IMG/VR virus record: IMGVR_UViG_3300011335_000335
Span: 1-36,320 of that record
DNA from: a virus
Lineage: Duplodnaviria > Caudoviricetes
DNA: 36,320 bases
Reading direction: 5' to 3' (one strand)
Positions 1 to 36,320 of this stretch are shown in pieces (the first letter of the stretch is position 1; each line of letters opens with the position of its first letter). Position numbers and translations under genes: made by a program. The notes beneath the pieces are model-generated. The model was given only the letters and a program-made list of their open reading frames with translations. It was not told where the DNA came from and did no database searches.

Positions 1-765
1 CACTACTCAGGAACAACTGACCATTACAAGGAAACGCATCTACCACGCCACCACGAAGCGGAACTTCTAATTGGTTGGCCACAGTGGTCACTGTGGGTTG
101 CCATGTTAGCGGTGCTTGGTTAAGTCCAAACGCTTGACTCCATTGTACTGTTACAGGATACTCTGACACAACACCATCTAAGTCTGTCACTGTGAGTCCA
201 CCAGCAACTAAAATATTACCCACATTGGGTGTTGAATACAAGCGCATGAACTTGGCGTAATATGATTTCCAAATTGGATTGTAGTTCCAGGCATATTTGG
301 GCGCAACACTTCCACCACCAGGATAACCAGCGCCAGGTACTGCGTAGTAATCAATTGTGTCAGCAGTACTGGCCGCTACTTTAAAAGTACCATTGAAGTA
401 ACTGTTGACTCCAGAGATCACAATGTAATCACCTGCACTGTAAGGTGGCGCTGATAAAGTAGTGCTTAATGTAATCTGCTGTAGGTTGGGTGCCAAGTAA
501 GCAATGTCACTTATGGTAGAAGGCAACTGATTACTGTACATTTGCAACAGCGGTAATGGATCACTAACACAACCAGAATCTGTCATGGGACCTGCTGTGC
601 TGCCAGCAAAACTCACTGTGGATGAAGTTACATCTGTCACTGTGTGCGTTCCTCTAAAGCCTGTGGGCACAATGCCACGCACCAATAATGTCTGTCCCAC
701 AGCAAATGGTGTGTAAACAAATGTTAGATCAGCAATGATACCACCATCAGTTGTGATTGGTGCGC
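1..765. repeat. Terminal direct repeat / circular overlap, copy A (matches 35556-36320)
   Basis: Base-by-base alignment with offset 35555 gives about 26 mismatches, 25 of them in the first 320 bp; the copies appear identical from about 414 to 765. Confidence 0.97.
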
Positions 766-2764
766 CACCATATGAAGTGCTGAGTTGGAATGTGCTGACT
801 CCGTTAGTCTGAATAATGTAATAAGTTGTTGGATCAGAATAGCCTGCAATGTTTGGTGCTTGCACACGAAACACCAGACCACTCACAGCACCACCAGTTG
901 TGACTATAGGATCACCTGCACCGTCTACCAGGGTAAACGCTGTGACACCATTGGTTGCTGAAATGTAGTAGTCGGTTGGATTGGAATAGCCTGTGATACC
1001 TGATGCAGCCACTGTGAAGGTTAAGCCTGTGGGCACGCCGCCTGCTGTTTCAATTGCAGTGGCAACTCCATCAATCATTTCAGCCAAGGTAAAACTGGTA
1101 GTGCCATTTGTGCTTACAACAAGATATGTTGTGGGGTCAGTATAACCTGTTATGGCCGGGATCTGTACTGTGTAAGTTAATCCAGTAGGAGTTCCACCTT
1201 GAGTAGCAACTTCAGTTCCATCAGCCACATTCACAATGGTAAACGAAGTAGAACCGTTAGTGGCACTGATGTAGTAGTCTGTTGGATTGGTATAACCTTC
1301 AATGGCTGGAATGCTGACTGTGTAAGTTAATCCAGTAGGTGTGCCTGCTGTGGTCACAACACCTGCACCTGTTAGTTCAGTTAGAGTGAATGTTGTGATA
1401 CCATTGGTGGCAGAGATCAGATAACTTGTGGGCGGAACATAACCAGCAATGCTGCCTGTGCCTCCTGCTACTCCAGAGATTACAACTGTTTGTCCAACTT
1501 GTAAACTTGTGGCCGTGCAACTGAATTGACCCGCTGTGCCTGTGATCACAACACCTGCTAATACTGTGGGCGTATTGGTTATGGTACCTGCAATGGTGAC
1601 CTTCTGCCCAACCTTTAGTGTTGTGGCAGCACATGTGAACTCACCTGCATTACCAGCAATGCTTACTGTGCTGAGTGCTGTGGGAGTATTGGTTATACTG
1701 CCTGCCACAGTGACACTTTGTCCAACTGCTAAGGTTGCGGCTGTGCAAGTGAACTCGCCAGCGTTGCCCACAATGTTAATGCTGCCCAGGGTCTGTGCGG
1801 CAGAAGTGTTTGTGCCACTTACTTCTACTGTTTGGCCAATGCTTAAGGCTGTGGTGTTGGTTCCTGTTATTGTGGTTGCTGCCACTGTTTGTGATATGCT
1901 GACACCATAAGTTCCTGTACTGCCAGGTGTGCCTGTTAACTGTCCAGTGATAACTGTGCCTGCTGTTACGCCTGTGCCTGTTAACTCTTGGTTGTTCATT
2001 GGGATACCACTACTGATAGCAGTGATGGTCAAAGTGGTGCCAGCAATGCTGCCTGTAAACTCTGCAGGTGTCAACAAGTTGGCACAACTGAACTCACCTG
2101 CGTCGCCTGAGATGGCCACTGTGCGTAAGCGTGTGTTGTATAAGTTGGCTGTATTGGTACCAGATATGGTCACCTTCTGCCCTGCTTTTAATGGTGCTGA
2201 GTTGGTATAACTGAATGTACCTGTATGGTCAGCAATCCTAACACCAGTTACTTCATCTGTCTGATTTAAAAAGGACACAGTAGAAGTACCAGCCGCACTG
2301 GTTGCACTCAGTATTTCAAAACTGTTGCCTGTGAAGTCTGGCCAAAACATAGGAGGATTTTGTTCATCATTGAAGAACGGTACTGTGCCGTTCCAGGCTT
2401 CTGTTATGTTTTGTGCTTGTGTATAAGTGCCTACACCTGCTGTGGGAGTAATTTCTTCATAATCACCTTCACCATTGTTGGCCCACCATTTGCCATCTGT
2501 GGTGGCTGTGATAAAGTAAAAGTCATTACCACTACCTGACATGGGCTGACGGTAGCCACCTGACACAAAGGTTGGTGTGCCAGGTACTCCAGGTAAGATA
2601 ATCTCATCGCCTGCTACTGATCTGACTCCACGCACATCAGTTTCAATGTTCTCTCCTGCGTTGTATTCATTTGGTCCCAGTGCTGTAGAAGGTACATCTG
2701 GTGAGAAGGTCATCTTCTGGAACGGTACTCTGACCTCGTCAAATGCTTTTTTAGTTTGTGCCAC
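1..2764 (-). CDS. Tail nozzle / stabilization-type virion protein, N-terminal part (continues through the overlap into 36320..34090; about 1409 aa in total)
   Basis: Absent from the ORF track because it runs off the edge. GTG at 2764 follows AAGGAG and a TAAATA box. Manual translation gives [25 protein letters not shown]...[20 protein letters not shown]..., in frame with 34090..36255. The nozzle call comes from position before the ejection genes and beta-rich character. Confidence 0.85.
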
Positions 2765-3192: not shown

Positions 3193-3273
3193 TTAGAACA
3201 TGCGTAGCACAAAGGTCAATGTGATATACAAGGTCACCAATGTAATAGCAATGTTGATGCAGTTTTGGATCAT
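3193..3273 (-). CDS. Putative 26-aa single-pass membrane peptide (MIQNCINIAITLVTLYITLTFVLRMF)
   Basis: ATG overlaps the methyltransferase stop (TGATG); uniformly hydrophobic. Confidence 0.5.
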   Translation of the reverse strand: MIQNCINIAITLVTLYITLTFVLRMF

Positions 3274-3911
3274 CACAGTACCCTGACAGCAACAGGTTGG
3301 TAGTTGCCACCATGCACATACCCAATGTATTCATAGGGTCGTCGCTCTTCTTGCCAGGCACGGAACTCATGTTGTTGCCAACCTGGATAGTTCCAATACT
3401 CATCAAACACAATGATAGTGCCTGCTCCAATGTAGTGCTTTAGATACTTAAACACATCCTTTGTTGCTGAGTATAGGTCACAGTCAATATGTATTAGACT
3501 GGCAAAACCTCGGTGTTGTTTGGTCCACCCTGGTAGTGTAGCATCAAAGCGTCCCACTACTAACTTGACATTTGGTGGTACTTGGGGTAATGGCTGTGCA
3601 AAGTGTCCTGCTGGTAATCCATTCCAAGGCTCGTAAATGCCTTCAAAGCCATCAAAGCCATAAATGTCATGCGTGGGGAATAGTTCAGCCCAGTGACGGA
3701 TACTGCGCCCTGTTGCTACACCAAACTCCAAGATGTAGCCTCCTTGTAGCACTTGAGTACTTACTGCACGATGTAAGCGTAGGTCACTGCGGTAACTGGG
3801 TACTGCTCCAAACCTACGGGCACAATAACCAATGCTGTCATCAGTCCAAGCAGGCTTGGGTGCGTTTCTATAACGCCACGCTTGTTTTATATCATCTATA
3901 AGATAGTTCAT
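3273..3911 (-). CDS. Class I SAM-dependent O-methyltransferase, TylF/MycF-like
   Basis: Motifs LEFGVATGRS, YGFDGFEG, LIHIDCDLYSAT and IVFDEY. Confidence 0.85.
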   Translation of the reverse strand: MNYLIDDIKQAWRYRNAPKPAWTDDSIGYCARRFGAVPSYRSDLRLHRAVSTQVLQGGYILEFGVATGRSIRHWAELFPTHDIYGFDGFEGIYEPWNGLPAGHFAQPLPQVPPNVKLVVGRFDATLPGWTKQHRGFASLIHIDCDLYSATKDVFKYLKHYIGAGTIIVFDEYWNYPGWQQHEFRAWQEERRPYEYIGYVHGGNYQPVAVRVL

Positions 3912-4216
3912 TTGTTCTCCTGAATGAATTGTAACGCACGGTCTACTAATGCGCTGCCTGGACGAGGTGTGCGTCCAATTGTGTTGTAGTCAAAGTCTGG
4001 ACTTGAGTATGCGGGGGTGGTTCTGTTGCGAAACAACTCATCATACGCAGATTCTGCCGCTCGTTTGGGCAGGGCCTGCGGTAACTTGTACAAGGCAATT
4101 TCTGTGTTGCCAGTTGACAGCATTGTTTTACCACGGCGTACTGCATCGCCGTTTGAGAAACGAATCTTGCGCTGGCCTCCACGCACAGAAGTGCCTACTA
4201 CTGTGTATGTGTTCAT
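3908..4216 (-). CDS. Hypothetical protein (102 aa, start MNTYTVVG)
   Basis: ATGA overlaps with neighbours at both ends; GGAG RBS before the ATG at 4216. Confidence 0.75.
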   Translation of the reverse strand: MNTYTVVGTSVRGGQRKIRFSNGDAVRRGKTMLSTGNTEIALYKLPQALPKRAAESAYDELFRNRTTPAYSSPDFDYNTIGRTPRPGSALVDRALQFIQENK

Positions 4217-4389
4217 TCGGCTGTCTCCAACTGACGCTTGCAATTACCAATGATTTCGTTCTCGCCTTGCAACTGCATATAAATTTGGTCGCATTTGACA
4301 TCGTCATATTTGGCTTGTGCGGCTTCTAAACGCCGGATCAGAGTAGCACGGCGTTTCTGTGCCAGGCTCATAATGTGTTGGTAGTTCAT
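4213..4389 (-). CDS. Hypothetical protein (58 aa, MNYQHIMSLAQKRR...)
   Basis: Not in the ORF track; AAGGAG RBS; ATGA-coupled to both neighbours. Confidence 0.75.
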   Translation of the reverse strand: MNYQHIMSLAQKRRATLIRRLEAAQAKYDDVKCDQIYMQLQGENEIIGNCKRQLETAE

Positions 4390-4619
4390 GCTTGCTCTCC
4401 TTCTGTGGCTTCTACTTCACGCTGAACTGCTTCAATGTGTCGGCAAGCAATGCTGATGGTGTCTGTTGCGTCCTGCAAAGCAATACGCATTTCAAACAAC
4501 TCATCACTGGTGAGTATCTCGTCACGCAAGCGGTAGAAATAAGTCTCTACTACGCCACGAGCCTCCTCCAACATTTCAGTTGCACGGTCTGCGTTGGTCA
4601 ATAAATTTACTGCGGTCAT
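4386..4619 (-). CDS. Hypothetical acidic helical protein (77 aa, start MTAVNLL)
   Basis: AAAGGA RBS before the ATG at 4619; the upstream ATG in the track falls in the promoter/leader. Confidence 0.75.
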   Translation of the reverse strand: MTAVNLLTNADRATEMLEEARGVVETYFYRLRDEILTSDELFEMRIALQDATDTISIACRHIEAVQREVEATEGEQA

Positions 4620-4679
4620 TTTGTATCCTTTAGTGTATGAACCAGTTAAGTGATCTACTTTACTGCTGTCCATGTATTT

Positions 4680-4708
4680 ATTATAACGGAAAAGGCTCAG
4701 GAGGTCAA
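4680..4708 (-). promoter_or_regulatory. Sigma70-type early promoter
   Basis: TTGACC-17 bp-TATAAT. Confidence 0.85.
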
Positions 4709-4781
4709 CCTATTTTTGAACTTTTTTGTGTTGTATTTTAGCAACGGTAACTTCTGCGTTAGTGAGCACTAACTTACTGGC

Positions 4782-4808
4782 AAAAAAAAGCACACCTGCG
4801 TGTGCTTT
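4782..4808 (-). terminator. Intrinsic terminator
   Basis: AAAGCACAC-loop-GTGTGCTTT stem running into a T8 tract on the minus strand. Confidence 0.85.
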
Positions 4809-4824
4809 GTTAGTGCTTGCTGAC

Positions 4825-5043
4825 TTATGCAAACTCAACTGCTAAGTCCTGCAACAACTGTTGGATGGTTGCTTGGTCCTGCGTTGACAACTCACCCCGC
4901 TCCATCACCAGCGTAACGCTGTCTGCGCTGAATGCTTGTGTGTAAACACAACCTGCTGGGACTGCATCCCAAAGCACTTCACCAGCAATAGCGTTGAAGT
5001 TGGCTTGTGTAGGCTTGTTGAACTTAAAAGTGTATGTAGACAT
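4825..5043 (-). CDS. Hypothetical early protein (72 aa)
   Basis: Own promoter, AGGA RBS and terminator: a self-contained cassette. Confidence 0.8.
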   Translation of the reverse strand: MSTYTFKFNKPTQANFNAIAGEVLWDAVPAGCVYTQAFSADSVTLVMERGELSTQDQATIQQLLQDLAVEFA

Positions 5044-5092
5044 TTTGTTTCCTATGTGTTATACACCTGCACTATTGCTGGTGTATGTATGT

Positions 5093-5121
5093 ATTATAGC
5101 AGGGTTGATCCTGCTTGTCAA
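5093..5121 (-). promoter_or_regulatory. Perfect-consensus sigma70 promoter
   Basis: TTGACA-17 bp-TATAAT. Confidence 0.9.
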
Positions 5122-5187
5122 CCAAAAACCCTACGCTGTGTAGGGTTGTTGTTTTTTCACAACAGTAGTACTTTCGTTGCGGTAATA

Positions 5188-5388
5188 CTATAGTAAAGTT
5201 TCAGTTCTTGTTCTTGCGCGGTGCAGGATTTCATGTACTGTGTCCCGCAACTGATGTCTTGTTTCCCGTGTTAGTCCATATCTGTTGCGAATAGCGCCCA
5301 AGCACCAATCCAATTCGTGTGCTGTGATCAAGCCTTGCAGAGCCATGTGTTTAAGTTCTGCTATTACTGATTGTTCTGTAGTGCTCAT
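5188..5388 (-). CDS. Hypothetical protein (66 aa)
   Basis: ATGA-coupled to the upstream ORF. Confidence 0.7.
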   Translation of the reverse strand: MSTTEQSVIAELKHMALQGLITAHELDWCLGAIRNRYGLTRETRHQLRDTVHEILHRARTRTETLL

Positions 5389-5534
5389 TCTGCTGCCTTT
5401 AGTTGTTGTAGTAGTGCATGTGCATCTGCTTTGACTTTATCACGCCACTTTTGCTGACGCTCTTTATTGCTGACAGGGCCACCTGGCTTTAATGGACGAC
5501 CCATTTTCTTTGGTTGTGTTGTTTCAGTTTTCAT
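5385..5534 (-). CDS. Small basic putative DNA-binding protein (49 aa)
   Basis: Not in the track. MKTETTQPKKMGRPLKPGGPVSNKERQQKWRDK has an AT-hook-like GRP plus an SNxERQxxWR basic helix; AAAGGA RBS. Confidence 0.7.
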   Translation of the reverse strand: MKTETTQPKKMGRPLKPGGPVSNKERQQKWRDKVKADAHALLQQLKAAE

Positions 5535-5535
5535 T

Positions 5536-5709
5536 TCATTTCCTTTTCATTGGGTAAACTTCTCGTGTAACAATTTTTCTTGTAGCAATTTCTTTAAGAA
5601 CTTGTCTGAGTTCTTCTTTGGTTTTAACTGGTATGCCTGCGGCTCGCATAAAGCGTTGTAGGCGTTCACTTGCAGTTTCATTTTCTGGTGCTGGGTCTAA
5701 TTTATACAT
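5536..5709 (-). CDS. Hypothetical protein (57 aa, start MYKLDP)
   Basis: AAAGGA RBS before the ATG at 5709. Confidence 0.7.
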   Translation of the reverse strand: MYKLDPAPENETASERLQRFMRAAGIPVKTKEELRQVLKEIATRKIVTREVYPMKRK

Positions 5710-5766
5710 TTCTATTCCTTTTATTAAAAATTGGCTCAATCGCGGAACTCTCTCTTACTCTCTCAT

Positions 5767-5904
5767 GACCCCTCTGACTTCTTCACGAGTGGAACGAAGT
5801 GATCCCGTAGGGGAAGAAATAGGCGAAGCGTCAGTGGTTTTGCAGAGCGAAATGCTGACTACTCTTTATACTTCTTAATACTACTTAATACTGTTAATAC
5901 TGTA
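5767..5904 (+). other. Candidate origin / single-strand priming signal: GNA-triloop minihairpin cluster plus three TTAATACT repeats
   Basis: Intergenic. CTGAC...GTCAG outer stem encloses GT-GGA-AC, CCC-GTA-GGG and GC-GAA-GC; TTAATACT at 5875, 5885 and 5894. Confidence 0.4.
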
Positions 5905-6558
5905 TTATGTTAGCGCCTTGTTAGATAGAAAACGGGCTAATCTATCATTGGCACTTTCACCTACTGTGGGCGTAAACTGTAATGGCTCCAACAACCAAGT
6001 GTCATGTGCAATAAAGCCCTTGGCCTTTTGTGCTTTACTCAGTTTAGTTGGCATTGTAACAATGCGTTTGAAGTGTCCAATTTGCAATCCAAATGTCATT
6101 GAGCCACGATCAAAGAAACCAAACACAGCAGGGTTCAATGGCTTATATCCTGGGCGCCCTGGAATAAAGAATCCTGTTTCACGACCAAAGCCACTACGCA
6201 AATATGCCTGCTTCCAAGTGGGATTGTTAGCGGCTGCAATTTCTGTAACTTCAGCACCTAATCGTGCTCGTTGTTCCAGCATAAAGTCTCTAATGGGAAT
6301 CTCACCATACTGCAAGCATAACTCAGTCAAGTCATACTCTTGCTTGCGTGTGTTGCGACTGCGACCTTGCAGTTTCATCTTCAGCATCAGCGCACAGTTG
6401 CCCCAGCGTTGAGTCTTGTCTGTTTTGCATTGTATAGTGGCTTCTACTGATTTGCCTTTTTCAGTGGCCCATTCACCAATTGTGATTTGTATAGCATGCC
6501 ATTTCAAATCTGGATTATATAGTGCTGGCATCACGCCTGGCATTAGTTCTGTTGTCAT
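5905..6558 (-). CDS. Hypothetical protein (217 aa, start MTTELM)
   Basis: ATGA-coupled to the upstream gene; largest unassigned early gene; no motif recognised. Confidence 0.8.
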   Translation of the reverse strand: MTTELMPGVMPALYNPDLKWHAIQITIGEWATEKGKSVEATIQCKTDKTQRWGNCALMLKMKLQGRSRNTRKQEYDLTELCLQYGEIPIRDFMLEQRARLGAEVTEIAAANNPTWKQAYLRSGFGRETGFFIPGRPGYKPLNPAVFGFFDRGSMTFGLQIGHFKRIVTMPTKLSKAQKAKGFIAHDTWLLEPLQFTPTVGESANDRLARFLSNKALT

Positions 6559-6779
6559 TTGCTTTTCCATCCTAAATGTTTGTTGCAGTCTGTGCAACGA
6601 TATGCGGCAGAGTGTACACTACCAGGCTTTGTTTTAGTAACAATTACTTGGTGTCCTTGTGCTTGGTGTTCTCTAACTGGTATCGGTGCCAGTTTGGGTA
6701 GTGTGACCTTTTCATATGTCTTACGCCAGGGTTCGCTTTCATAGCCACCGTTTGGTCTATTATAGTTCATTCTGCTCAT
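6555..6779 (-). CDS. Small protein with putative Zn-binding C-terminus (H..CxxC..H)
   Basis: HSAAYRCTDCNKHLGW; AAGGA RBS. Confidence 0.7.
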   Translation of the reverse strand: MSRMNYNRPNGGYESEPWRKTYEKVTLPKLAPIPVREHQAQGHQVIVTKTKPGSVHSAAYRCTDCNKHLGWKSK

Positions 6780-6916
6780 TGCTGGGTCCTTTCCAACTGT
6801 TCAAAGTATTCTACTTCTGTTAGGATATCTACTGCTTCGCCTGCGGCACGATACAGCATTACTATTTCTTCTGCTTCTTCAAGTGTGGCGCAGGCGTTGT
6901 GGTTTACATAGTACAT
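6776..6916 (-). CDS. Hypothetical acidic protein (46 aa, MYYVNHNACATLEEAEE...)
   Basis: Not in the track; fills the gap exactly and is ATGA-coupled downstream. Confidence 0.65.
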   Translation of the reverse strand: MYYVNHNACATLEEAEEIVMLYRAAGEAVDILTEVEYFEQLERTQQ

Positions 6917-6918
6917 GT

Positions 6919-7305
6919 TTAACCCCACAATGCTTCTGAGAATTCAATCACTTCTGTGCCAAACTCTTTGTTGAGACTGATGGAGATGTGCTGTATCCAA
7001 TCAATGTTGTCTTTGGTAAAGTCTTCTTGATAGCGTCCTGTTTTGTTGTTGGGTCTAAACAACTGATTGTTTAGGATGCCAGCAATATAACTGGTAATGC
7101 TGTTTTCTCGTCCACGGCTCATCTTGGGCATGTTGCTCATGCCTTCAAAATAAAAGCCCATGTCGTTCTTTGGATCACGCACGCCTTCGTTTAATAACGA
7201 AAGCCATTCAATTAGTACGCCAAGCACTTGTGTGTGCTGATCGCGGTCTAACTCTACATAGGTAGTGTTGGCACGAACATCTTTGGTTGTGTATTTTACT
7301 TTCAT
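6919..7305 (-). CDS. Hypothetical early protein (128 aa)
   Basis: First gene after the sigma70 promoter; AAAGGA RBS. Confidence 0.85.
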   Translation of the reverse strand: MKVKYTTKDVRANTTYVELDRDQHTQVLGVLIEWLSLLNEGVRDPKNDMGFYFEGMSNMPKMSRGRENSITSYIAGILNNQLFRPNNKTGRYQEDFTKDNIDWIQHISISLNKEFGTEVIEFSEALWG

Positions 7306-7348
7306 TCTGTTCCTTTGTTAAACAGTACTGATCTTGTGCTGTTGTTGT

Positions 7349-7377
7349 ATTATATAGCAGACATAACGGAAAGTCAA
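7349..7377 (-). promoter_or_regulatory. Sigma70-type early promoter
   Basis: TTGACT-17 bp-TATAAT. Confidence 0.85.
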
Positions 7378-7408
7378 GTGGTTATGGCGAAATAAATGCA
7401 GATTTTTG

Positions 7409-7437
7409 TTGACTTCTCCACTTTAATAAGGCATAAT
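7409..7437 (+). promoter_or_regulatory. Divergent plus-strand sigma70 promoter
   Basis: TTGACT-17 bp-CATAAT, back-to-back with the minus-strand early promoter. Confidence 0.7.
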
Positions 7438-7443
7438 TACTAT

Positions 7444-7760
7444 TAGCAGTGAGTGCAATGCTTGCTGTTAGGATCACAATTATAGCATCTTTTACAGCCA
7501 TTTGAGATGCCTCCGTAATACATGTGGTATTCCTTCGTGTGGTGATCCGGTATCTGTAGCCTGGGCTTCCTGATCAGTTGCTTACCGTGAGTTTTTAGTA
7601 AGGCATTTTCTCACAAAAGGGCTCTTATATTTTTCTAAACCAGGCGTTATAACCTGTTGATATCATTGAAGAAAAACCACCCTGTTTTGCTAAACCACTA
7701 CAAAAACGCCTGATCACTACCGCATGTACACGAAATAGTAAACCAGGCGTTTAAATGACT
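7444..7760 (+). ncRNA. Candidate structured non-coding RNA (3' end uncertain)
   Basis: Downstream of the plus-strand promoter with no long ORF. The 5' 11-bp hairpin relies on G-U pairs valid only on the plus strand. Nested stems GGATCAC/GTGATCC and GCATCT/AGATGC. Confidence 0.5.
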
Positions 7761-7764
7761 TATT

Positions 7765-7838
7765 TGGCAGGCCCACTTGGAATCGAACCAAGGACGACAG
7801 AATCAAAATCTGTTGTGATACCACTTCACTATGAGCCA
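7765..7838 (-). tRNA. trnQ: tRNA-Gln (anticodon UUG), CCA encoded
   Basis: TGGCTCA-TAGTGAAGTGGTATCAC-A-ACAGA-TTTTGAT-TCTGT-CGTC-CTTGG-TTCGATT-CCAAG-TGGGCCT-G-CCA folds as a cloverleaf. Confidence 0.95.
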
Positions 7839-7843
7839 GTATT

Positions 7844-8128
7844 TTATGTGATGTCTATTATTTTACCAGGGTTCATAACACCAACACTGAAGTCTGTGGT
7901 CTCGTAGGCCGCATTCAAACGACGAGCCAGAGCCACAGCATGTCCTGGTTCGGGAAATGCTGTTTTGTTATATTTCATTCCTTGATACCGTTTCTCTGGA
8001 TTGTGCTTGCGAATCTTAACAGGTCTACCTTGGTACAACACAGCATAGATAGCATCTGCTTCGCATACTTCAATAATCAAATTGTTATCACTATGGCTAC
8101 AGATCTGTGTTGGTTGTGGTCTTGCCAT
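7844..8128 (-). CDS. Hypothetical phage protein (94 aa)
   Basis: TAATG-coupled to the upstream HTH gene. Confidence 0.8.
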   Translation of the reverse strand: MARPQPTQICSHSDNNLIIEVCEADAIYAVLYQGRPVKIRKHNPEKRYQGMKYNKTAFPEPGHAVALARRLNAAYETTDFSVGVMNPGKIIDIT

Positions 8129-8823
8129 TATGCGGCTTTCTTTAATAGGTTGTATATGTATGCTTCGCTGACTTCAAACTTATCAGCAACTTTGCTAACT
8201 GGTAAGCCTGAACGATATGCTGTGATCAATTCATCTTGCTTGCAAAATCGTTTACGGTTTATCAATGGCACACCATTGCGCCACTTCTTCACAACATAGT
8301 CAATGTTGGGCGTGGGAAAATCTAACTCTTTGCTGATGTCAATGGCTCTCATACCAGCATCCAACATTGCATATACCTTAGCATGGTCCAGTTGACGGCG
8401 ACGAGGCTTTTCAGCCACAGCACGAACACTTTTGTTTTCTGGTGTTTTCCACCATGTGTAGGCAGCACCTGCTGAGCGATATGTTTTAATATAAGACATA
8501 ACTTCATGCATAGGCACAGCGGCAGCAATACCAATCACAGGATACATGACTCTGTTGGCTGTGCGAACCATGTGTTCAGGATCAGGCGCATCAAACCAAC
8601 GAATCAATTCTCTATGCTCGCTGTAAGGTAAGTTCGTGGCTGGCAGATACCAAATGCCTGCTACTGATATCTCATAAGGCGTAATTGAAGTAGCATGAAA
8701 TGTGGCATCATCAATGTTGGTCACATCCAAAGCCCTGCGTAACCAAGCCCGTGGACTACCCAATGGACCAGTTACTCCAGCAGTGGTATTTGTAGTTGTG
8801 TTAGTCCAGGTATCTTGTTGCAT
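8128..8823 (-). CDS. Putative transcription regulator with two C-terminal helix-turn-helix motifs
   Basis: AGMRAIDISKELDFPTPNIDYVVKK and SGLPVSKVADKFEVSEAYIYNLLKK fit the HTH pattern. Confidence 0.7.
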   Translation of the reverse strand: MQQDTWTNTTTNTTAGVTGPLGSPRAWLRRALDVTNIDDATFHATSITPYEISVAGIWYLPATNLPYSEHRELIRWFDAPDPEHMVRTANRVMYPVIGIAAAVPMHEVMSYIKTYRSAGAAYTWWKTPENKSVRAVAEKPRRRQLDHAKVYAMLDAGMRAIDISKELDFPTPNIDYVVKKWRNGVPLINRKRFCKQDELITAYRSGLPVSKVADKFEVSEAYIYNLLKKAA

Positions 8824-9154: not shown

Positions 9155-12100
9155 TTATGCGCCTACTGGAATCAATGTCAAGAACACAGCGGCTGCGCCT
9201 GGTCTTGGTGCGGCTGCCGCAATAAATGGTAGTGTAATTGAAGTATCGCTAACAGCATAGATCAATTCAAAGTAATCAGTGGTGTTGGCAGTTTGAACCA
9301 TGTTGTCCCAACCAACAATTAATGCACCTGAGGCAGCACCTGCTTTGGGAACAGTAAAGTAACCAGCACTATTGCTAATATCAGTGCCGTTCTTTCTCCA
9401 CCAGAATGAAACATTATGATCTTGTCCGTTGTCTGAGTTTTCAACTTGTGCTGAGAACTGCAACTTGAACATACCAGCCGCGCCAGGAATGATACGACTT
9501 GTTGAAGCCGCTGAAGCAATGTTGGCAAAGTCAATAGTTGCATTAGCGCCTTGGAATGGAACAGCATAACCAGTATTAGCAGCCGCTGGTGTCAGCGTAG
9601 CATCATACTGCCATTGTCCATACACACGGTTGTAACTGATTGCTGTGCCAACTAAAGCAACACCAGCATAAGTTTGTAATGTAAGAGCATCTGCTTTTAG
9701 CGTGTTGTTGGTTGGTGAAAACTGAGCAACAGTTGCAGTAGTGCCTGCGGCACCTGCTGTTCCAGCAAGAATTCTTGTGTTGGTTAACTTACTGCTGATA
9801 GTCTGAACTGAATCAACAATAGATCCTGTTTGATCACCTTTGGCCAAGCCCAAGTAGAATTCATGATCACTTCCAGATGCTGGTGTTTGGTATAGGTAGT
9901 TGAAGAAACCAATACCATAGTTTGTGCCAGAACTACCTGCTGTGCTGATACGCAGGCCAGTGCCATCATTGTCAATTGGAGCGGCAGTAGCAGTTGTAGA
10001 ACGCTTTAACAATAATGCTGGATTGGCACCAGAAGTTGTTGCTGTTCTAATAACTTCAGTTGCGCCACCTGTTGTAATAGTAGCACCACCTGTAGCAAAG
10101 TTAGCGTATGTGCTTGTGCCTGCTGTGTTTTTCAACGCAACAGTGTCACCGTTTAAAGTAGCACTTGTTGAGTTTAGAGTAGCATAAGTTGTAGTGCCTG
10201 CTGTGTTCTTTAGTGTAAATGTATCTTGGTTAATGCTACCTACAGTAGCACCCAAAGTCATGTAGTTGGTTGCAGTTAATGTGCTACCAGTGATAACTTC
10301 GTTGGCAAATGTATATGCGTTAGATTTAAATGTGGCCGCACTGGCTGTTAGATCCATAAAGTTGAATCTGTTGGCAGGAGTTATGTTGGTGCTGTTGGCA
10401 AAGCCACGAACACGGAAACCAGTGCCTGCGGCTGTGACAGTATTGGCTGCGGCAATTGTTCCACCTGATGTAAAACCAGTTGTGGCATTACTGTATGAAA
10501 TACTGCTGGTAGTGGCCGCACTAATTGTATAAGTGCCATTGTAGCCACTTGGTGTCATGCCAGCAATGGTCACACTTTGACCAGCCGCATAAGGTGCTGT
10601 GTTTTGTGTTGTAAATGTTAGTGTTGCTACTGAGCCAGTTCCTGACGCACCTGTCACTGCTGTTGTCACAGTAGTTGAGTTGGTAAATGCTTGACGAGCA
10701 TAACCTTGTGCTTGTATTGGTTGAACTGCAACAAAACCACCACCTGCATTGGCAGTAGCAATTTGTGAAACATAATTGTTTGAAGTGCCTGCAGTATAAC
10801 CATCAAAGTTCAATGCGCCTAACACCTGGTTTGCACTTGAACCAGCAGGTGCTGAACTACTACCTGTGGCACTTGACAATGCCAATGATGCGGCATTGTT
10901 GACACCTGCACTTGTATCACCTGAATGATATCTGGCTGCATAGCCTGCGCCATATCCATTGGCACCACCTGTGCTTGAAACAGCCACTACACCGTTAGTG
11001 CCTGTTACTGTGCTTAATGCACTGGTTGGTGGGACATAAGTTGTATTTTGTGTGATTAAAACTTGGCTACCGTTCACAGTCAAGTTGCCACTTGTGACTA
11101 CTCGTTCTGCATTATCAGTTGAATCAATTTTTAATAGGCCTGCTTTGCCTGTAGCACCAATGCTTAACGCACTGGCGTTGTTGTCAACTACGGTCCATGT
11201 TTGTGCTACTGTGCTTGATATGTTAGGATCAGCAAGTTGTATGATACCACTGGCGCTGTCTAAGATCAAATCACCAGTTGTTGTGCCAATAGTTTGGTCT
11301 GTGCCAACACCCACTGTGATATTACCTAATGTGGCACCTGATGCACTGAAATTGCCAGAAGCATCACGAGCAACAATAGTGTTCGCTGTGTTGGCATCTG
11401 TAGCATCACTACCAAGTGTGACTTCTGTAGCACTGGTATAAGTGGCTGTGATATGGTTGCCATTTGTTAGTTTAACTGTGTCAGTTGTAGCGTTTGAACC
11501 AGTTAAGTTTAAGTTAGCACCACCTGTTGCGCTACTTGCCGCAAAGTCATAAGTGACCACAGTTGGCAACACGCTGTTGACATAATCTACAGTTGTAAGG
11601 TCAGAGCCATTAACTGGACCAAATTGATTTACAGTAGCGTAAGTGCCACCCATTGGTGCTGTGTTAACAAAACTTACACCACCGTTGGCATTGACAGTTC
11701 CAGTTGTTACGCTATTTGTTGTAACGCCGTTAAACTGCACATTATCGCTTGTGCCTACTGCTTGTCCAATAGCAACGGTAGCAGTTGAAGCATCTGTATA
11801 ACTTACTGTGACACCAGTGCCATTAGCAAATTTAACAGTATCTGTTGTGCTGTCGCTGCCAACCAAGTTTAAGTTAGCACCGCCTGTTGTGCTACTGATA
11901 TTTTGTGTGTAGGTTGTGTTTGTATCTGGCGCATTGATTGTGATAGTATTAGCATCAGTTGCTACTACAGTCACATTGGTGCCACCAGCAAATTTAATAG
12001 TATCTGTAGTTGCATCGCTACCAACTAAATTAAAGTTTGCACCGCCTGTTGTGGCAGAAGCATCAACAGTATATGTTGTGTTTGAATCAACTTGAGCATC

Positions 12101-13444
12101 AACATAGGCTTTGGTTGTTAAATCTAATGGATTAGTAGGGCCAGCAGGGTTCACTGTGGCATATGGCGTTATGTAATCAATGAAAGTCACAACAGTTCCG
12201 CTGGCACCTTGCACTCCAGCAGTATACTTGCCAGTTTGAATACGCAAGTCATTGGTGGCAGCACCACGAGCCTGAATACCAATAAATTTACTATTCAGTT
12301 GATCACTGCTACTGGCTGCACTGATGTTGGCAATAGCACTGGTAGTTGTGTTGGGTGCTTCAACACGCCATCCTGAAGTGTTGCCAGTTGTGCTACGCAC
12401 ACTTGGACGATTTAAACGGTCATTGTTTTCACTATAAAGAATGTTAGTTGCAGGAGCCAATGACACAGTTGTGCCACCAATAGTTAGGTCATTGTCAAGA
12501 GCCAAACTACCTGTGCTGTCCAAGATCATCTTAGTAGCATAAGTGGCACCATTTTCCATTAGGCCAAAATACATTGAGAAGTCTTCGCTGCCTGCGGTAA
12601 TGTCAGTTAAGTTTACGCTGATATAACCTGCTCGTTCTGTGTTGCCTGGCTGTGCTTCAACTTGATATTCTAAAGTATTACCAAAGCCCACAGCAGGTGT
12701 AAGTGATGTCTGAGCACTTAATGCCAAGCCTCTAACAGCAGTATTAGTAACAGCACTATTTCTTGTTATCAATGTTGGAGCATCAAGACCACTGGTGATG
12801 TTGACACCATTGTTGCCAGTAGGAAGTAAGTTAAGATCACCAGAAGTTGTAGCAATAGTGTTTCCATCTACTACACCAATAGTGATGTTAGCAAAGTCAC
12901 CGCTGTCTGCTACCAAATTGTTGCGGATTGTAGTAGTGCCAGTAGGAGCACCCATTGTAAGTGTAGTAGCACCTTGGAATGCATTTACTGTTGTTGGACT
13001 ATTCACCAAAAAGAAACTACTGCTGTTGGTGCTTAAGATACTTGTTGTATCTGTGTCAATTTCACCTGTGGCACTTTTTAGTATAAGTTGTCCACTTGTA
13101 GTTGTAATTGTGTTATCTGTTGCTACACCAATGGTGATATTACCAAAGTCAGCACCAGGAGCATACAATGTGTTGTTGATTGTGGTTGTGCCTGTGCCAG
13201 CACCAATGTTTACTGAGGTGGCTGCAAGTCCTAAATTAATAGTAGTTGCGTTTGCTGGAAAAATATTACCAGTTGCGGCTGTGGTAAGAATGTTTCCGCT
13301 CAAGACATACAAGTCTCCGCGTACTACTACATTACCACTACTGTCTGGAATAGGTGTGCCAGCCTCACCATACAAACTTGTTGAGTTAGTTGAACTCGAA
13401 TTTTGTGTGGTAACTGTGCCGTATAAACTTGAAGAACTTGTCAT
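9155..13444 (-). CDS. Long tail fibre / receptor-binding protein (1429 aa)
   Basis: T/G/A/S-rich with internal repeats (3x TTGGANxNLxGSxxTTDTxK; 3x NITxGVxxDxTIxTTxGxLxL); C-terminal C1q/BclA-like beta-sandwich (GMFKLQFSAQV...WWRKNGTDI). Confidence 0.85.
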   Translation of the reverse strand: MTSSSSLYGTVTTQNSSSTNSTSLYGEAGTPIPDSSGNVVVRGDLYVLSGNILTTAATGNIFPANATTINLGLAATSVNIGAGTGTTTINNTLYAPGADFGNITIGVATDNTITTTSGQLILKSATGEIDTDTTSILSTNSSSFFLVNSPTTVNAFQGATTLTMGAPTGTTTIRNNLVADSGDFANITIGVVDGNTIATTSGDLNLLPTGNNGVNITSGLDAPTLITRNSAVTNTAVRGLALSAQTSLTPAVGFGNTLEYQVEAQPGNTERAGYISVNLTDITAGSEDFSMYFGLMENGATYATKMILDSTGSLALDNDLTIGGTTVSLAPATNILYSENNDRLNRPSVRSTTGNTSGWRVEAPNTTTSAIANISAASSSDQLNSKFIGIQARGAATNDLRIQTGKYTAGVQGASGTVVTFIDYITPYATVNPAGPTNPLDLTTKAYVDAQVDSNTTYTVDASATTGGANFNLVGSDATTDTIKFAGGTNVTVVATDANTITINAPDTNTTYTQNISSTTGGANLNLVGSDSTTDTVKFANGTGVTVSYTDASTATVAIGQAVGTSDNVQFNGVTTNSVTTGTVNANGGVSFVNTAPMGGTYATVNQFGPVNGSDLTTVDYVNSVLPTVVTYDFAASSATGGANLNLTGSNATTDTVKLTNGNHITATYTSATEVTLGSDATDANTANTIVARDASGNFSASGATLGNITVGVGTDQTIGTTTGDLILDSASGIIQLADPNISSTVAQTWTVVDNNASALSIGATGKAGLLKIDSTDNAERVVTSGNLTVNGSQVLITQNTTYVPPTSALSTVTGTNGVVAVSSTGGANGYGAGYAARYHSGDTSAGVNNAASLALSSATGSSSAPAGSSANQVLGALNFDGYTAGTSNNYVSQIATANAGGGFVAVQPIQAQGYARQAFTNSTTVTTAVTGASGTGSVATLTFTTQNTAPYAAGQSVTIAGMTPSGYNGTYTISAATTSSISYSNATTGFTSGGTIAAANTVTAAGTGFRVRGFANSTNITPANRFNFMDLTASAATFKSNAYTFANEVITGSTLTATNYMTLGATVGSINQDTFTLKNTAGTTTYATLNSTSATLNGDTVALKNTAGTSTYANFATGGATITTGGATEVIRTATTSGANPALLLKRSTTATAAPIDNDGTGLRISTAGSSGTNYGIGFFNYLYQTPASGSDHEFYLGLAKGDQTGSIVDSVQTISSKLTNTRILAGTAGAAGTTATVAQFSPTNNTLKADALTLQTYAGVALVGTAISYNRVYGQWQYDATLTPAAANTGYAVPFQGANATIDFANIASAASTSRIIPGAAGMFKLQFSAQVENSDNGQDHNVSFWWRKNGTDISNSAGYFTVPKAGAASGALIVGWDNMVQTANTTDYFELIYAVSDTSITLPFIAAAAPRPGAAAVFLTLIPVGA

Positions 13445-13453: not shown

Positions 13454-14662
13454 TTATTTGATTGAATATTGACGATACTGTCTTGGTTGCCATACGCTGG
13501 TTAAGCGTGTGTGTCCACCAGACCATTTGCCCAAATTGTTTTGGTCTTCAACAACATTCCATGCGGCATCAAACTTTTGCTGATATACTGCGGCATCTGT
13601 ATCATTGTGACGCTTGATGTAGTATTCACGCAAAGTAGCATACACATAACCTTCTGGCCATGTTTGTAAGACTGCGTTGTTTTGTACTGTTAGGCCAGTT
13701 TGTGTAATACCAGTAACTGTGCCTGCTGTGGGAATAGTGCCACCTGTTGTGGTTGCTGTGATACTGGTTGGACTTAAAATACTTGCTACACGGGTAACAC
13801 CAGCGGTGCTACCAAATGAGCCAGTGCCGGCTGCGGCGTAAATTTGATCACCAATTTCTAAATCGCCTACACTGGTCATGCCAGTGATGGTAAATGTCCA
13901 AGGTCCAGATCCTGTAATACTGCCAACTGTGCCTGTTACACTAATAACTTCATCTGTGACAGGTGCAAACAACAGCGGCCATGCTTTGTAGTAATACATG
14001 TTGATCAAGTCGCCTTGAGCAATGTAAGGCAAAAATTGATACTTGTTGTATACTTCTGAGAACTTGCCGCGAATAACTGCTGGCACATTCACTGGCTGTA
14101 GATACAACTGTGCAATCATGCCTTGTGTGATAACATCACGATCACCAATACGGTCATACACAATCCAAGGACCTGTTTGACTTGCTTGGTTGCCAGTTGT
14201 GGAGAATACTAATGTTCCACTAACTGTGCCTGTGTTGGCTGCACTCAGCGTGATAGTAGCACCACTAATGCCTGTGCTGACATTACTGATAATGGCGCCT
14301 GCACCAATGCCTGTACCTGTTACCAACATGTTGTTTGAGATTGAGCGTGATGGTGTACTTGTAAGGACAATAGTGTATTGACCTGTTGTGCCTGTTGCTG
14401 TTGCTGTTGTTGTAACTTGCTGACCTTGTTTGAAAAACAAGATAGGTTTGTTCATATCACCAGGAATAGGAATACGACCATTTTCATCAGCAACACCAAT
14501 GTTTTCTACTGCGTATGGATCTGAGCGTAGTGCTGGCAGTTCAATGTTTCTCATTGACATCTCTGCCATGAAAATACATTTTTTAATTTCGTCGTCGTTT
14601 GTGCTGCCTGTAAAGTCTTTGATGAATGTTACTAATGCATCACCTGTTGGAATTGTAAACAT
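13454..14662 (-). CDS. Head-tail adaptor / tail tubular A-like protein with two inserted beta-rich domains
   Basis: Position after the capsid; helical N-terminus (IKKCIFMAEMSMRN) and NAVLQTWPEGYVYATL C-terminal motif typical of podovirus adaptors. Confidence 0.7.
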   Translation of the reverse strand: MFTIPTGDALVTFIKDFTGSTNDDEIKKCIFMAEMSMRNIELPALRSDPYAVENIGVADENGRIPIPGDMNKPILFFKQGQQVTTTATATGTTGQYTIVLTSTPSRSISNNMLVTGTGIGAGAIISNVSTGISGATITLSAANTGTVSGTLVFSTTGNQASQTGPWIVYDRIGDRDVITQGMIAQLYLQPVNVPAVIRGKFSEVYNKYQFLPYIAQGDLINMYYYKAWPLLFAPVTDEVISVTGTVGSITGSGPWTFTITGMTSVGDLEIGDQIYAAAGTGSFGSTAGVTRVASILSPTSITATTTGGTIPTAGTVTGITQTGLTVQNNAVLQTWPEGYVYATLREYYIKRHNDTDAAVYQQKFDAAWNVVEDQNNLGKWSGGHTRLTSVWQPRQYRQYSIK

Positions 14663-33172: not shown

Positions 33173-34090
33173 TTACTGTTTAACCACTTGTGCGCTTAAA
33201 CTTCTTAAACTCATTAAGTCTCCTGTGACTTGTCCATTTGAAACAGGAACCTTGTCTACCAGGTGCGTGTTAAACACAAACTTAACTTCAAGTATATACC
33301 AATAATAGCCAGGGTCTGGTTTATCTAAGATTGAAGTGAATACTGTTTCAGTTACTGGCAGCGTGCCACTTGAGCCCAGGCCATCTTTGATATAAGTTTT
33401 GGAAGCAACAGTTTCATCAAAGTCAAAGATAAAGTCTGGGTTAACTGGATTGTTATTAGGCTCACCTTTGTAACGATTAACTGCCACTGTGTAATTCAAT
33501 AGTGCAGGGAATGTATTGGCTGTGTAAGCAATCACGCTGTCCAACTGAGCACTGATAAAGACTCTGTCAGTGCCACCTGTCACTGTGACACGAGCATTGC
33601 AGTCAGTTGAGTTAAAGCCAGTTCCAGTAGTTAAACTTACTGTGCCACCAGAAGCAGAGTTCTGCACTGAGTAAGTGCTACTGGTTCTGATGATAACATA
33701 AGTTGTGGTACATTTGGTAACACCAATAACAGCATAGGTATCATTGTACCAACTGTTGACACCTTTGATTGTGATACCATTACCCAGGGCAAACGGTGCT
33801 GTCTTTTGTGCTGTGGCAAATGTAAACTTAAATGTTCTACCGTCCAGCATTTCACTTGTGCTTAGATCAATAGGACTCACATACAGCCTTGCGGGCGTGT
33901 TTATTGTTTTGTTGGCAGCATCAGCAAAGGCCAGACTGTAAGGCACACGGAAGTTGCCAGTAAGCCAAGCAGGAGCAAAACTACTGAAGCCAGCAAAGTT
34001 TTGTCCCAGGCCTGACGGGCCACTCAGCACATAGTTGACAGCCTCAACTATGCCTTCCTTGTCACTAATCTCTACAGGAAACTTTGCCAT
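33173..34090 (-). CDS. Putative tail structural protein (305 aa)
   Basis: Beta-rich; TAATG-coupled to the nozzle gene; contains a PFALGNGITIKGV-type domain. Confidence 0.7.
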   Translation of the reverse strand: MAKFPVEISDKEGIVEAVNYVLSGPSGLGQNFAGFSSFAPAWLTGNFRVPYSLAFADAANKTINTPARLYVSPIDLSTSEMLDGRTFKFTFATAQKTAPFALGNGITIKGVNSWYNDTYAVIGVTKCTTTYVIIRTSSTYSVQNSASGGTVSLTTGTGFNSTDCNARVTVTGGTDRVFISAQLDSVIAYTANTFPALLNYTVAVNRYKGEPNNNPVNPDFIFDFDETVASKTYIKDGLGSSGTLPVTETVFTSILDKPDPGYYWYILEVKFVFNTHLVDKVPVSNGQVTGDLMSLRSLSAQVVKQ

Positions 34091-36320
34091 TATCTGTCAT
34101 CCTCTGTTTGTGTATACTGCCATGTTGTGGCTGAGCACATCCAAATGTTTTGTGTTGTGCTGTTACTAATGACTAAACTGTTGACACGATGTGCATTCTG
34201 ACTGATCTGAACCCAAGGATAATCAGTGTTGGTTGCCATTGTTTCAGCAGTGGTCTGCAGTGGTGCTTGTCCTACTGAATTGGCACCACGCACTTTGATA
34301 TCAACGCTGCCTACACGAGTTGGTGCTGACTCTTCATTGATTGGTAAGCCTGCTTTGTCCAAGTTAACAACTTCTGGTAATAGTCTATGCACCAACAACT
34401 TGCCAGAATAGTCAGGCAGTAGTTTAAGGTTGTCTCTACGGAAGTAACTGATGATTGGATACTCACGAGTTTGTGGGCCTAAGAAGTTGTAGCCATCATC
34501 CTTCTGCACCAGGTTTCTATTGGCCAGGCCACGAGCATACACAACTCCACGATCACCTTCATTGTAGATCCAGGTTGCTAATGGCGTGCCTGTCATTGTC
34601 ACTGTGGTGATTCTACCGCCTGTGTCTGTTGCTGTCACAGTGGCCACTGCATCGTTGGCTGGTGATTCACCACCAACTTCAGTTCCCAGGATCAGTATGG
34701 TATCACCCACTGAGTATCCAGAGCCTCTACGGTTAGGAGTAGGGCCGGCAATATACTGCACACCAACTTGACGCTGTATGTTAAAGTATGCTCCAGAACC
34801 TGTGGCGCTGATGTTGGTGCCTGGCACATCATAATACCATTCAGTACTGCTCCAGTACGGACTTTCAGTTGAGAAGGTTGCTGCCTGTACTTGTCTTGGT
34901 GGATTGAAACAATCAATATCATAACGATAACTCAGCATCATGTTGGGCACACCATCGCTGACAAATTCAAAAGCAACACCTGTCACTGTGCCCACTGTGG
35001 TTGTTAGGCCTGCGCCTTGTGGTGTTGCACTTAGTTGGAAGTAAACAAATCCATCTGCTTCATAACTGTCAACCACATAGTATGTTGCGGGTCCACCAGA
35101 ATAACCAGAGATGCTGCCTGTGCCGGACTCTGTGCCAGTTAAGATCACGCTTAGGTTATTGTGAATTGGTCCAGACTGATAGCCAACACCATAACTGGCT
35201 TTAAACAAACCAGTGGTTGAATCAATTGTGATGCTTTGTACAATAGGAGGTCTTGTTGGATAGTAAATTTCAATCTGATTCTTCTGTGTGTTGGTGTCCA
35301 TGAACACACGGTCCACATACGCAGGATCCAATTGATCAAAGAACCAATTCTTCACACGCTGATTACCAAGTCCTTGAAAGTCTTGTCCATTGAATACCCA
35401 AATGTCTCGAGCATCAATACCATACACCAACTTGTCTGTGTTGGCCCAGCAATTGCTACTCAGCATACCACGGCCCTGGTTGGCAAGACGCACACCTAAG
35501 ATAGGAGCACTTGTTGTTGAATAGTTAAGCGGACTGAACACCACAGTATCCCATACACTACTCAGGAACAGTTGTCCATTACAAGGAAACGCATCTACCA
35601 CGCCACCACGAAGCGGAACTTCTAATTGGTTGGCCACATTGGTCACAGTGGGTTGCCATGTAAGTGGTGCTTGGTTAAGTCCAAACGCTTGACTCCACTG
35701 TACAGTCACAGGATACTCAGACACTACACCATCTAAGTCTGTCACAGTGAGTCCACCAGCAACTAAAATATTACCCACATTGGGTGTTGAATACAAGCGC
35801 ATGAACTTGGCATAGTACGAAGCCCAGTTGGGATTGTAGTTCCAAGCATACTTGGGCGCAACACTTCCACCACCTGGATAACCAGCGCCAGGTACTGCGT
35901 AGTAATCAATTGTGTCAGCAGTACTGGCCGCTACTTTAAAAGTACCATTGAAGTAACTGTTGACTCCTGAGATCACAATGTAATCACCTGCACTGTAAGG
36001 TGGCGCTGATAAAGTAGTGCTTAATGTAATCTGCTGTAGGTTGGGTGCCAAGTAAGCAATGTCACTTATGGTAGAAGGCAACTGATTACTGTACATTTGC
36101 AACAGCGGTAATGGATCACTAACACAACCAGAATCTGTCATGGGACCTGCTGTGCTGCCAGCAAAACTCACTGTGGATGAAGTTACATCTGTCACTGTGT
36201 GCGTTCCTCTAAAGCCTGTGGGCACAATGCCACGCACCAATAATGTCTGTCCCACAGCAAATGGTGTGTAAACAAATGTTAGATCAGCAATGATACCACC
36301 ATCAGTTGTGATTGGTGCGC
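34090..36320 (-). CDS. Tail nozzle / stabilization-type virion protein, C-terminal part (true start at 2764)
   Basis: The frame is open to the window edge and continuous with 1..2764 via the overlap. Confidence 0.85.
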   Translation of the reverse strand, partial: APITTDGGIIADLTFVYTPFAVGQTLLVRGIVPTGFRGTHTVTDVTSSTVSFAGSTAGPMTDSGCVSDPLPLLQMYSNQLPSTISDIAYLAPNLQQITLSTTLSAPPYSAGDYIVISGVNSYFNGTFKVAASTADTIDYYAVPGAGYPGGGSVAPKYAWNYNPNWASYYAKFMRLYSTPNVGNILVAGGLTVTDLDGVVSEYPVTVQWSQAFGLNQAPLTWQPTVTNVANQLEVPLRGGVVDAFPCNGQLFLSSVWDTVVFSPLNYSTTSAPILGVRLANQGRGMLSSNCWANTDKLVYGIDARDIWVFNGQDFQGLGNQRVKNWFFDQLDPAYVDRVFMDTNTQKNQIEIYYPTRPPIVQSITIDSTTGLFKASYGVGYQSGPIHNNLSVILTGTESGTGSISGYSGGPATYYVVDSYEADGFVYFQLSATPQGAGLTTTVGTVTGVAFEFVSDGVPNMMLSYRYDIDCFNPPRQVQAATFSTESPYWSSTEWYYDVPGTNISATGSGAYFNIQRQVGVQYIAGPTPNRRGSGYSVGDTILILGTEVGGESPANDAVATVTATDTGGRITTVTMTGTPLATWIYNEGDRGVVYARGLANRNLVQKDDGYNFLGPQTREYPIISYFRRDNLKLLPDYSGKLLVHRLLPEVVNLDKAGLPINEESAPTRVGSVDIKVRGANSVGQAPLQTTAETMATNTDYPWVQISQNAHRVNSLVISNSTTQNIWMCSATTWQYTQTEDDR
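35556..36320. repeat. Terminal direct repeat / circular overlap, copy B
   Basis: Matches 1-765. Confidence 0.97.

Follow-up and report, generated by a model that had tools for sequence, protein, structure and literature searches.

A predicted nest of like barrels, each in a loop of the previous one, in a phage nozzle-like protein

How can a protein fold when five first halves of a domain are followed by five second halves of the same domain? This question is raised by the nozzle-like protein encoded in the IMG/VR virus record IMGVR_UViG_3300011335_000335 (Duplodnaviria; Caudoviricetes), of which we analyzed the whole stretch of 36,320 nucleotides (the window). The protein carries five N-terminal halves (A units) and then five C-terminal halves (B units) of one small domain. 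We consider that the chain runs out and back, with pairs from A1–B5 at the base to A5–B1 at the tip, so that five barrels lie inside a sixth, and that the resulting arm likely projects from the nozzle. We give this reading a probability of about 0.92. In bracket form, the nest is X( A1( A2{Y}( A3( A4( A5 B1 ) B2 ) B3 ) B4 ) B5 ) X, where X is the outer domain and Y is a different domain within A2.

Translation of the window between 2254 and 710 confirmed what an earlier note, made from the DNA letters, had described, namely five A units, then five B units, with the motif GVAGGTGS at the centre (Table 1). The identity between A units is 32–68%, and that between B units is 40–62%. The nest contains much Thr, Gly, Ala and Val and little charge. 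Among reversed-sequence decoys, the best A score was 2.1 bits, no B match appeared, and quarter-profiles reached at most 3.5 bits; since the decoys score so low, the units exceed chance. An intact-domain profile of 86 positions, built from 77 intact A+B domains, matches A5+B1 (E 4.7e-36), and it also matches a divergent copy at 34966–35238 over positions 3–85 of 86 (E 7.9e-14). The note had placed a different domain of about 70 residues inside A2 and the whole nest inside a further domain, and both placements stand. The former is domain Y (2068–1859), a side branch that is absent from the list of A–B interface contacts. The latter is domain X, which is uninterrupted and empty in the orthologue L008; another orthologue, L004, lacks the entire block of 591 residues. 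Domain Y is mobile: L002, L003 and L008 have it in the X-like barrel X2, and P0003 has it close to the N-terminus.

An AlphaFold2 model of residues 147–735, based on an alignment of 56 sequences, has a predicted local distance difference test (pLDDT) score of 93.9 and a predicted template modelling (pTM) score of 0.79. In the VIA comparison, an E1 FCCH domain aligns onto model range 1..589 (72 residues aligned, Z 9.1, root-mean-square deviation (rmsd) 2.1). Because this alignment spans the model from end to end, both chain ends form one barrel in the prediction. Another barrel aligns onto 61..489, which is A2+B4 (67 aligned, Z 5.6, rmsd 2.5), further barrels align onto 253..339, which is A5+B1, and domain Y is covered by the range 82..159 (70 aligned, Z 7.5, rmsd 2.4). 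The modeled A5+B1 compares with UBA6 at Z 6.8 and rmsd 2.7 over 74 aligned residues, tying with EF-Tu- and reductase-type barrels. A+B is predicted to be an FCCH-like closed six-stranded antiparallel β-barrel. By sequence, Pfam E1_FCCH (PF16190) matches neither A5+B1 nor either of the two open reading frames (ORFs) of the gene in the window, and the nest has no named family in Pfam, whose weak FlgD-Tudor and OB matches fell below the cut-off and were disregarded. The ESM Atlas neighbours annotated E1_FCCH score just 0.81–0.83, and all Atlas matches lie below 0.9. Among solved structures, none matched A+B by sequence (best E 0.25), and Foldseek with the whole nest found no real PDB match.

The pairing of the halves was addressed by two-chain docking with ESMFold2, in which the link was cut and the A-run and the B-run were given as separate chains with an alignment built by us. 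The two runs dock with a score of 0.82, versus 0.00 for the best of three controls. The docking mark was reached by 116 of 157 solved pairs and by 2 of 215 mismatched pairs, counts that hold roughly for an alignment of our own making. The docking runs share at least 98% of their contacts, with partner pLDDT of at least 91. All 25 of the contacts listed are in the nested register (21 between A2 and B4, three between A3 and B3, and one between A1 and B5), as expected from the anti-diagonal contact map that the note had predicted; the list contains no A4–B2 or A5–B1 contact, and A5+B1 is seen through its VIA range. Beside unrelated partners, the pLDDT drops to 52–53 for the A-run and to 34 for the B-run, and the two runs are predicted not to fold apart. 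The nested reading is well supported by these predictions.

We then turn to the homologues. A search with residues 165–690 yielded 837 proteins among 7,992 scored candidates, of which the best 120 were used, and two scans of viral contigs contributed 19 and 79 more loci. The parsed set consists of 148 representatives at 90% identity, drawn from 207 proteins with a match. A and B counts are equal in 129 of the 148 (r = 0.91), and the string closes as brackets in 127. For the 94 proteins with at least five units, equality occurs in 80 (permuted mean 17.9, maximum 33 in 10,000 permutations) and bracket closure in 79 (shuffled mean 14.3, maximum 25 in 2,000). When the intact domain later served as the query, 683 clusters were obtained at E 0.001; the best 150 included 135 new proteins outside the training set, of which 114 are bracket-closed, as are 40 of the 52 with at least four units, and the parser placed 23 at a depth of at least 2. 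The least biased sample comes from a query with the N-terminal core, which holds no repeat: neither half is present in 14 of 19 loci, a balanced nest in five, and one half only in none. The note had expected equal A and B numbers with variable depth, and this is the pattern found. The nozzle group of the window displays depths of 0, 2, branched 2 (AABABB), 3, 4, 5, 6, 7 and 8, with eight-deep nests in the nozzle orthologues P0006 and P0121, and branched nests in relatives read AABABB, AABAABBB or A7B6ABB.

In many other proteins the domain stands alone or in a beaded row, and in the single-copy proteins, A is directly followed by B (47 'AB' proteins). Two giant proteins, P0122 and P0257 (2806 and 3614 residues), hold tangled mixed nests that are beyond the parser. 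Of the 21 unbalanced strings in the first set, eight proved, when read by eye, to contain a divergent or interrupted A overlooked by the parser, four were flagged as partial, one lies on a contig of 1,911 bases, and eight were left unexplained. P0220, which has B halves only, was rejected as a natural counter-example; it joins a primase-like N-terminus to a B3-X2 nozzle fragment on a contig of 1,872 bases, and is a chimera or a mis-assembly.

The partners were also compared from the sequences themselves. The similarity among A units mirrors that among B units under nested pairing, with a mean rho of 0.40 versus 0.00 for parallel pairing, and nested pairing is favored in 30 of 37 proteins; for the window, rho is 0.83 nested versus -0.22 parallel. 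Covariation across the halves resembles that of intact domains at 0.21 for nested pairing, versus 0.12 for parallel, 0.11 for shifted and a maximum of 0.18 for 60 random pairings.

How such a nest may grow is suggested by close relatives. In six sister pairs of unequal depth, the deeper member has in every case gained a block of A-length plus a block of B-length (39+49, 40+49, 76+100, 38+51, 38+50 and 36+46 residues, with uncertain gap placement). In a quick tree of 56 rows with many open forks, which served just to pick neighbours, the step from AABABB to AABAABBB is found in three separate places. Close relatives of the window carry whole A+B blocks of 85 residues inside A3 or B4; the domain therefore travels whole, and the main loop is not its only point of insertion. 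The recursive self-insertion proposed in the note is thus supported as nesting but not as insertion into the same loop only, since blocks also lie inside A or B halves and nests branch. P0045 has gained an inner domain that shares 82/83% identity with the intact neighbour domain in P0058, a sequence likeness which fits an origin by copying. We infer that a whole A+B block would insert first, and that out-of-register double crossovers would then replace an inner cassette with one of greater depth, so that a single step leaves A and B equal in number. A double crossover is proposed because layers gained off-centre need two distant changes, both of which one event supplies.

Several points weigh against the nested arm. 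The pairing rests on predicted models, in which the A4–B2 contact is not seen directly. The AlphaFold2 and docking predictions share one alignment (listed as A1) and are not independent, and the halves of a split domain can pass the docking through their likeness to solved barrels. Our nest model and the BFVD model of a relative with 88% identity differ in shape (TM 0.63, rmsd 10.2); because the two models differ in this way, the arm need not be straight or rigid. On the side of the homologues, the permutation and shuffle nulls ignore kinship, queries that hold both halves favor balanced proteins, the parser found 21 of 148 and 21 of 135 strings unbalanced, and the arm is absent from 14 of the 19 orthologues found with the core. 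The six sister pairs were chosen by hand. The Mantel p of the window itself is 0.07, and a log-odds partner test gave no signal, with nested pairing better in 25 of 41 proteins, a median p of 0.48 and a p of 0.63 for the window.

These points have to be set against other explanations of the same order of units. If A and B were independent small tandem domains, strung like beads and matched in number through a shared history, the silent log-odds test and the strings that remain unbalanced would be natural; each run, however, has low confidence without its partner, single-copy proteins present A directly joined to B, and paired gains recur in separate branches of the quick tree, which makes this arrangement scarcely tenable. 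Pairing could instead occur in trans, the A-run of one nozzle subunit packing in nested order on the B-run of its neighbour and cross-linking the ring. The predicted binding of the unlinked halves makes this physically possible, and domain swapping is reported for nested HABAS domains (PMC11515920). Yet a turn of only eight residues links A5 to B1, as it does in intact stand-alone copies, the single chain folds confidently in the prediction, and the same nests are also found in proteins with a different geometry, namely sheath and P22-gp10-like proteins, so pairing between subunits appears very improbable. Finally, the nest might have been created in assembly from repeated DNA or from two merged strains. 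There are 26 differences between the terminal copies of the record over 765 bases, which may reflect a contribution from two strains, and no contig examined covers the whole 2,800 bases. Against this, the DNA repeat copies of at least 35 nucleotides in the nest are only 63–79% alike, and a contig of another study (run X3) spans 722–2031 without a difference; mis-assembly of repeats is unlikely on both grounds. Dozens of separately assembled homologues also have the same build, and we regard an artefact as nearly negligible.

Returning to the nested arm, we consider its place on the virion and its role. A profile from 15 orthologues matches the solved nozzle protein gp16 (8zkk_O) with E 3.4e-10 over 107 positions, a sequence match that supports the 'nozzle-like' identity of the host protein. 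Five barrels, each in a loop of the previous one and all inside the sixth barrel X, would then form an arm projecting from each tail-nozzle subunit. If the nozzle were hexameric as in SU10, a virion would carry six arms, and at an estimated 2.5–3 nm per barrel each arm would be roughly 15–18 nm long. The tip domains are nearer the consensus (76.7%, n = 133) than the split layers (65.1%, n = 255), and hence the tip is not the variable or diversifying part. We tentatively suggest, at somewhat less than even odds, a length-variable surface arm whose many similar barrels reach the host surface or bind it weakly, with no specificity tip, as the likeliest role. That the arm is a tolerated accretion is a possibility we hold to be on the unlikely side. 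Another role would follow SU10, the arms straightening on host contact and extending the DNA channel as the four Ig-like (immunoglobulin-like) domains of the SU10 nozzle do. The portal and capsid proteins of the genome are of SU10 type, the SU10 domains are described as straightening into a 277 Å nozzle (PMC9509320), and the insertion in the window lies about 145 residues into the protein. But the fold differs, being a barrel rather than Ig-like; side branches, and the same nests in sheath proteins, suit decoration better; and most orthologues found with the core have no arm. The insertion site is also not placeable on the propeller, as the core model failed: for the nest-free orthologue L004, the pLDDT is 42.6 overall and the X2 barrel is the sole confident stretch. 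An SU10-like extension therefore seems rather doubtful.

Nests of the same domain occur in other proteins. A second, distant nozzle group (phrog_3287) has the balanced nests A6B5AB-B and A7B6AB-B, and balanced nests are present in tail sheaths (A4B4), in P22-gp10-like proteins (PF11134, head closure Hc3) and in a fibre-type protein. Among P0066, P0068, P0073, P0084, P0047, P0074, P0108 and P0117, the sheath and fibre-type nests are four-deep and the P22-gp10-like ones two-deep, and P0117 apparently uses a further insertion loop. By eye, the outer hosts of the nests in other families differ. The best match of a split layer falls within its own family in 95 of 97, 125 of 125, nine of nine and four of four cases, and in five of seven and zero of two in small groups; this fits separate growth of nests in different families, and within-family shared ancestry gives the same pattern.

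The domain is almost confined to viral DNA. In a collection of bacterial and archaeal genomes, we found four loci, each with a single domain or part of one; at one of them (L107:3987-5819), an ORF of 611 residues with a single intact A+B lies on a Pelomonas nitida contig, with phage-like genes adjoining by eye. No GenBank phage has a match to the nest, and the nozzle core is found in one uncultured record; it follows that there is no host or cultured model. We speculate, with the odds against us, that in freshwater phages a plug-in barrel, inserting at several loops of itself and of related barrels, gives rise to tree-shaped arms on the virion that follow a bracket grammar, that nests arose separately in at least four families (two nozzle groups, sheath and P22-gp10-like), and that selection for arms able to reach across the surface layers of the host tunes their length, from 0 to 8, one layer at a time, each change being a single recombination event. 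This would be the out-and-back counterpart of length variation in tandem repeats.

The genome is circular, with a net length of 35,555 bases, and the gene of the nozzle-like protein runs through the terminal overlap of 765 bases (26 mismatches). The whole protein, of about 1410 residues, is composed of the ORF starting at 2764 and the ORF ending at 34090. The join is backed by a relative of 1409 residues with 88% identity, and by a public contig (run X1, which may come from the source sample) that crosses position 1 as far as 982 with 26 differences and enters the nest carrying the letters of the 3' end at the overlap. The record may mix two strains, as its terminal copies differ at those 26 bases. 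The intact A+B copy which the note had assigned to the same protein is real, and the assignment holds only by way of the terminal overlap.

Table 1. Features of the nozzle-like gene and its nest in the window (res, residues)
Feature	Position	Strand	Remarks
Terminal overlap	1..765 with 35556-36320	none	96.6% identity
Nozzle-like gene, 5' part, 921 residues	2..2764	(-)	exits the window and resumes through the terminal overlap
Nozzle-like gene, 3' part	34090..36318	(-)	phrog_3287, E 1.7e-18; orthologue profile versus 8zkk_O
Outer domain X, N-terminal part, res 148-168	2261..2323	(-)	whole in L008; end-to-end FCCH alignment in VIA
A1, res 171-205, predicted partner B5	2150..2254	(-)	
A2, first part, res 212-231, predicted partner B4	2072..2131	(-)	VIA range 61..489
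Domain Y, different barrel inside A2, res 233-302	1859..2068	(-)	phrog_21413; VIA range 82..159
A2, second part, res 305-320	1805..1852	(-)	
A3, res 325-358, predicted partner B3	1691..1792	(-)	
A4, res 363-396, partner B2 by bracket order	1577..1678	(-)	pair outside the 25 listed contacts
A5, res 401-432, at the tip	1469..1564	(-)	A5+B1 is the sole uninterrupted domain; profile E 4.7e-36; VIA 252..339
Turn-around linker GVAGGTGS	1451..1474	(-)	in outer layers, the next domain sits in this loop
B1, res 439-485	1310..1450	(-)	
B2, res 488-534	1163..1303	(-)	
B3, res 538-586	1007..1153	(-)	
B4, res 590-635	860..997	(-)	
B5, res 639-685	710..850	(-)	
Outer domain X, C-terminal part, res 686-735	560..709	(-)	
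X2, intact X-like barrel after the nest	332..514	(-)	also present in nest-free orthologues
Divergent intact A+B copy, later in the protein	34966..35238	(-)	profile E 7.9e-14

Beyond this gene, the window encodes a terminase, SU10-type portal and capsid proteins, a fibre-like protein of 1429 residues and ejection-like proteins, which in the 19 ORFs scanned make up a podophage-type structural set (SU10 portal and capsid, terminase, ejection-like). Among the same 19 ORFs, no sheath or tube was matched, nor any polymerase, helicase or integrase, most small ORFs in 3911–8823 lying outside the scan. X-like barrels are found in the fibre-like protein (9155–13444; 38 bits) and in a protein of 305 residues (33173–34090; 16 bits). 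An adaptor-like protein of 402 residues (13454–14662) has two Thr/Gly-rich inserts, seen by eye only, and a 459-residue protein (30857–32236) has a long low-complexity Gly/Asp/Ala/Thr tract and no family match. Among the structural genes, we notice a Dps/ferritin-like gene (25712–26146), a fusion of a 2OG-Fe(II) (2-oxoglutarate- and Fe(II)-dependent) oxygenase with DUF6817 (32152–33156), and a TylF-like methyltransferase (3273–3911). A DNA-ejection-like protein (29845–30825) carries a C-terminal Peptidase_S74 chaperone domain.

One orthologous protein thus offers a graded series. It is joined by sister genomes that differ by a single layer, and by nests that occur separately in other virion proteins. 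With this series and these nests, DNA sequences can be used to test how a nest grows without becoming unbalanced, and the series is a natural one in which to study protein growth through self-insertion of a domain. An arm whose two ends remain adjacent can be inserted at any surface loop while the host fold stays intact. The joined ends would explain where nests occur, and they make the arm a candidate spacer of tunable length for protein design. Domain libraries miss these proteins because most of the domain copies are split.

Flagellin, with which the earlier note compared the stalk, has the domains D0–D3, different domains nested in one another on an out-and-back chain. The analogy holds for the nested topology, and the closer analogue is Si3, in which one domain type is nested in itself. 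Contractile tail sheaths have a 'Russian doll' domain order whose nested domains are unlike folds (PMC6088184). They share with the nozzle nest the out-and-back chain with domains within domains; here, by contrast, one homologous domain repeats, at the A–A and B–B identities given above, and the depth shifts between sister genomes. FCCH domains face outward on siphophage tail tubes (PMC13576161). The fold predicted here is the same as this E1 FCCH-type barrel (PF16190), and the phage examples in the available part of that paper are single, neither split nor nested. Among nozzles, VP1 gp16 (8zkk; PHROG 3287) shares a sequence match in the propeller region and a podophage-type gene set, and with 521 residues it is too short for such an insert. 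SU10 gp17 also has a multi-domain nozzle insertion, located between propeller blades 2 and 3; its four insert domains are Ig-like and are not described as nested in the accessible text (PMC9509320).

Of the open-access papers searched, taken without supplements, none was found to describe a phage nozzle or tail arm nested in itself. Si3 of the cyanobacterial RNA polymerase β' subunit is essentially the sole published case of recursive self-insertion found, and it has few intermediates. Published accounts describe a recursive insertion with six levels and branching (PMC13114784), HABAS domains inserted into HABAS domains (PMC11515920) and, in the crystal structure, non-tandem SBHMs (PMC10895346). 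Foldseek rows for Si3 (8emb) have E of about 1e-3 and TM of 0.10 or less, and homology was rejected; the resemblance is an analogy. Both systems, that of the phage by prediction, place a small β domain within copies of itself, have branching nodes, and form an elongated arm that leaves and re-enters its host at one loop, which makes Si3 the closest published analogue, nearer than flagellin or tail sheaths, which nest different domains. Unlike Si3, with its SBHM/HABAS domains inside RNA polymerase β', the phage nest would consist of FCCH-like barrels in a virion protein. It is plainly repetitive in sequence, reaches up to eight layers plus the outer barrel (P0006 and P0121), varies in depth among close relatives, and occurs in several unrelated host proteins. 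The principle of recursive self-insertion is therefore already published for Si3, and the phage nozzle appears to apply it to a virion arm.

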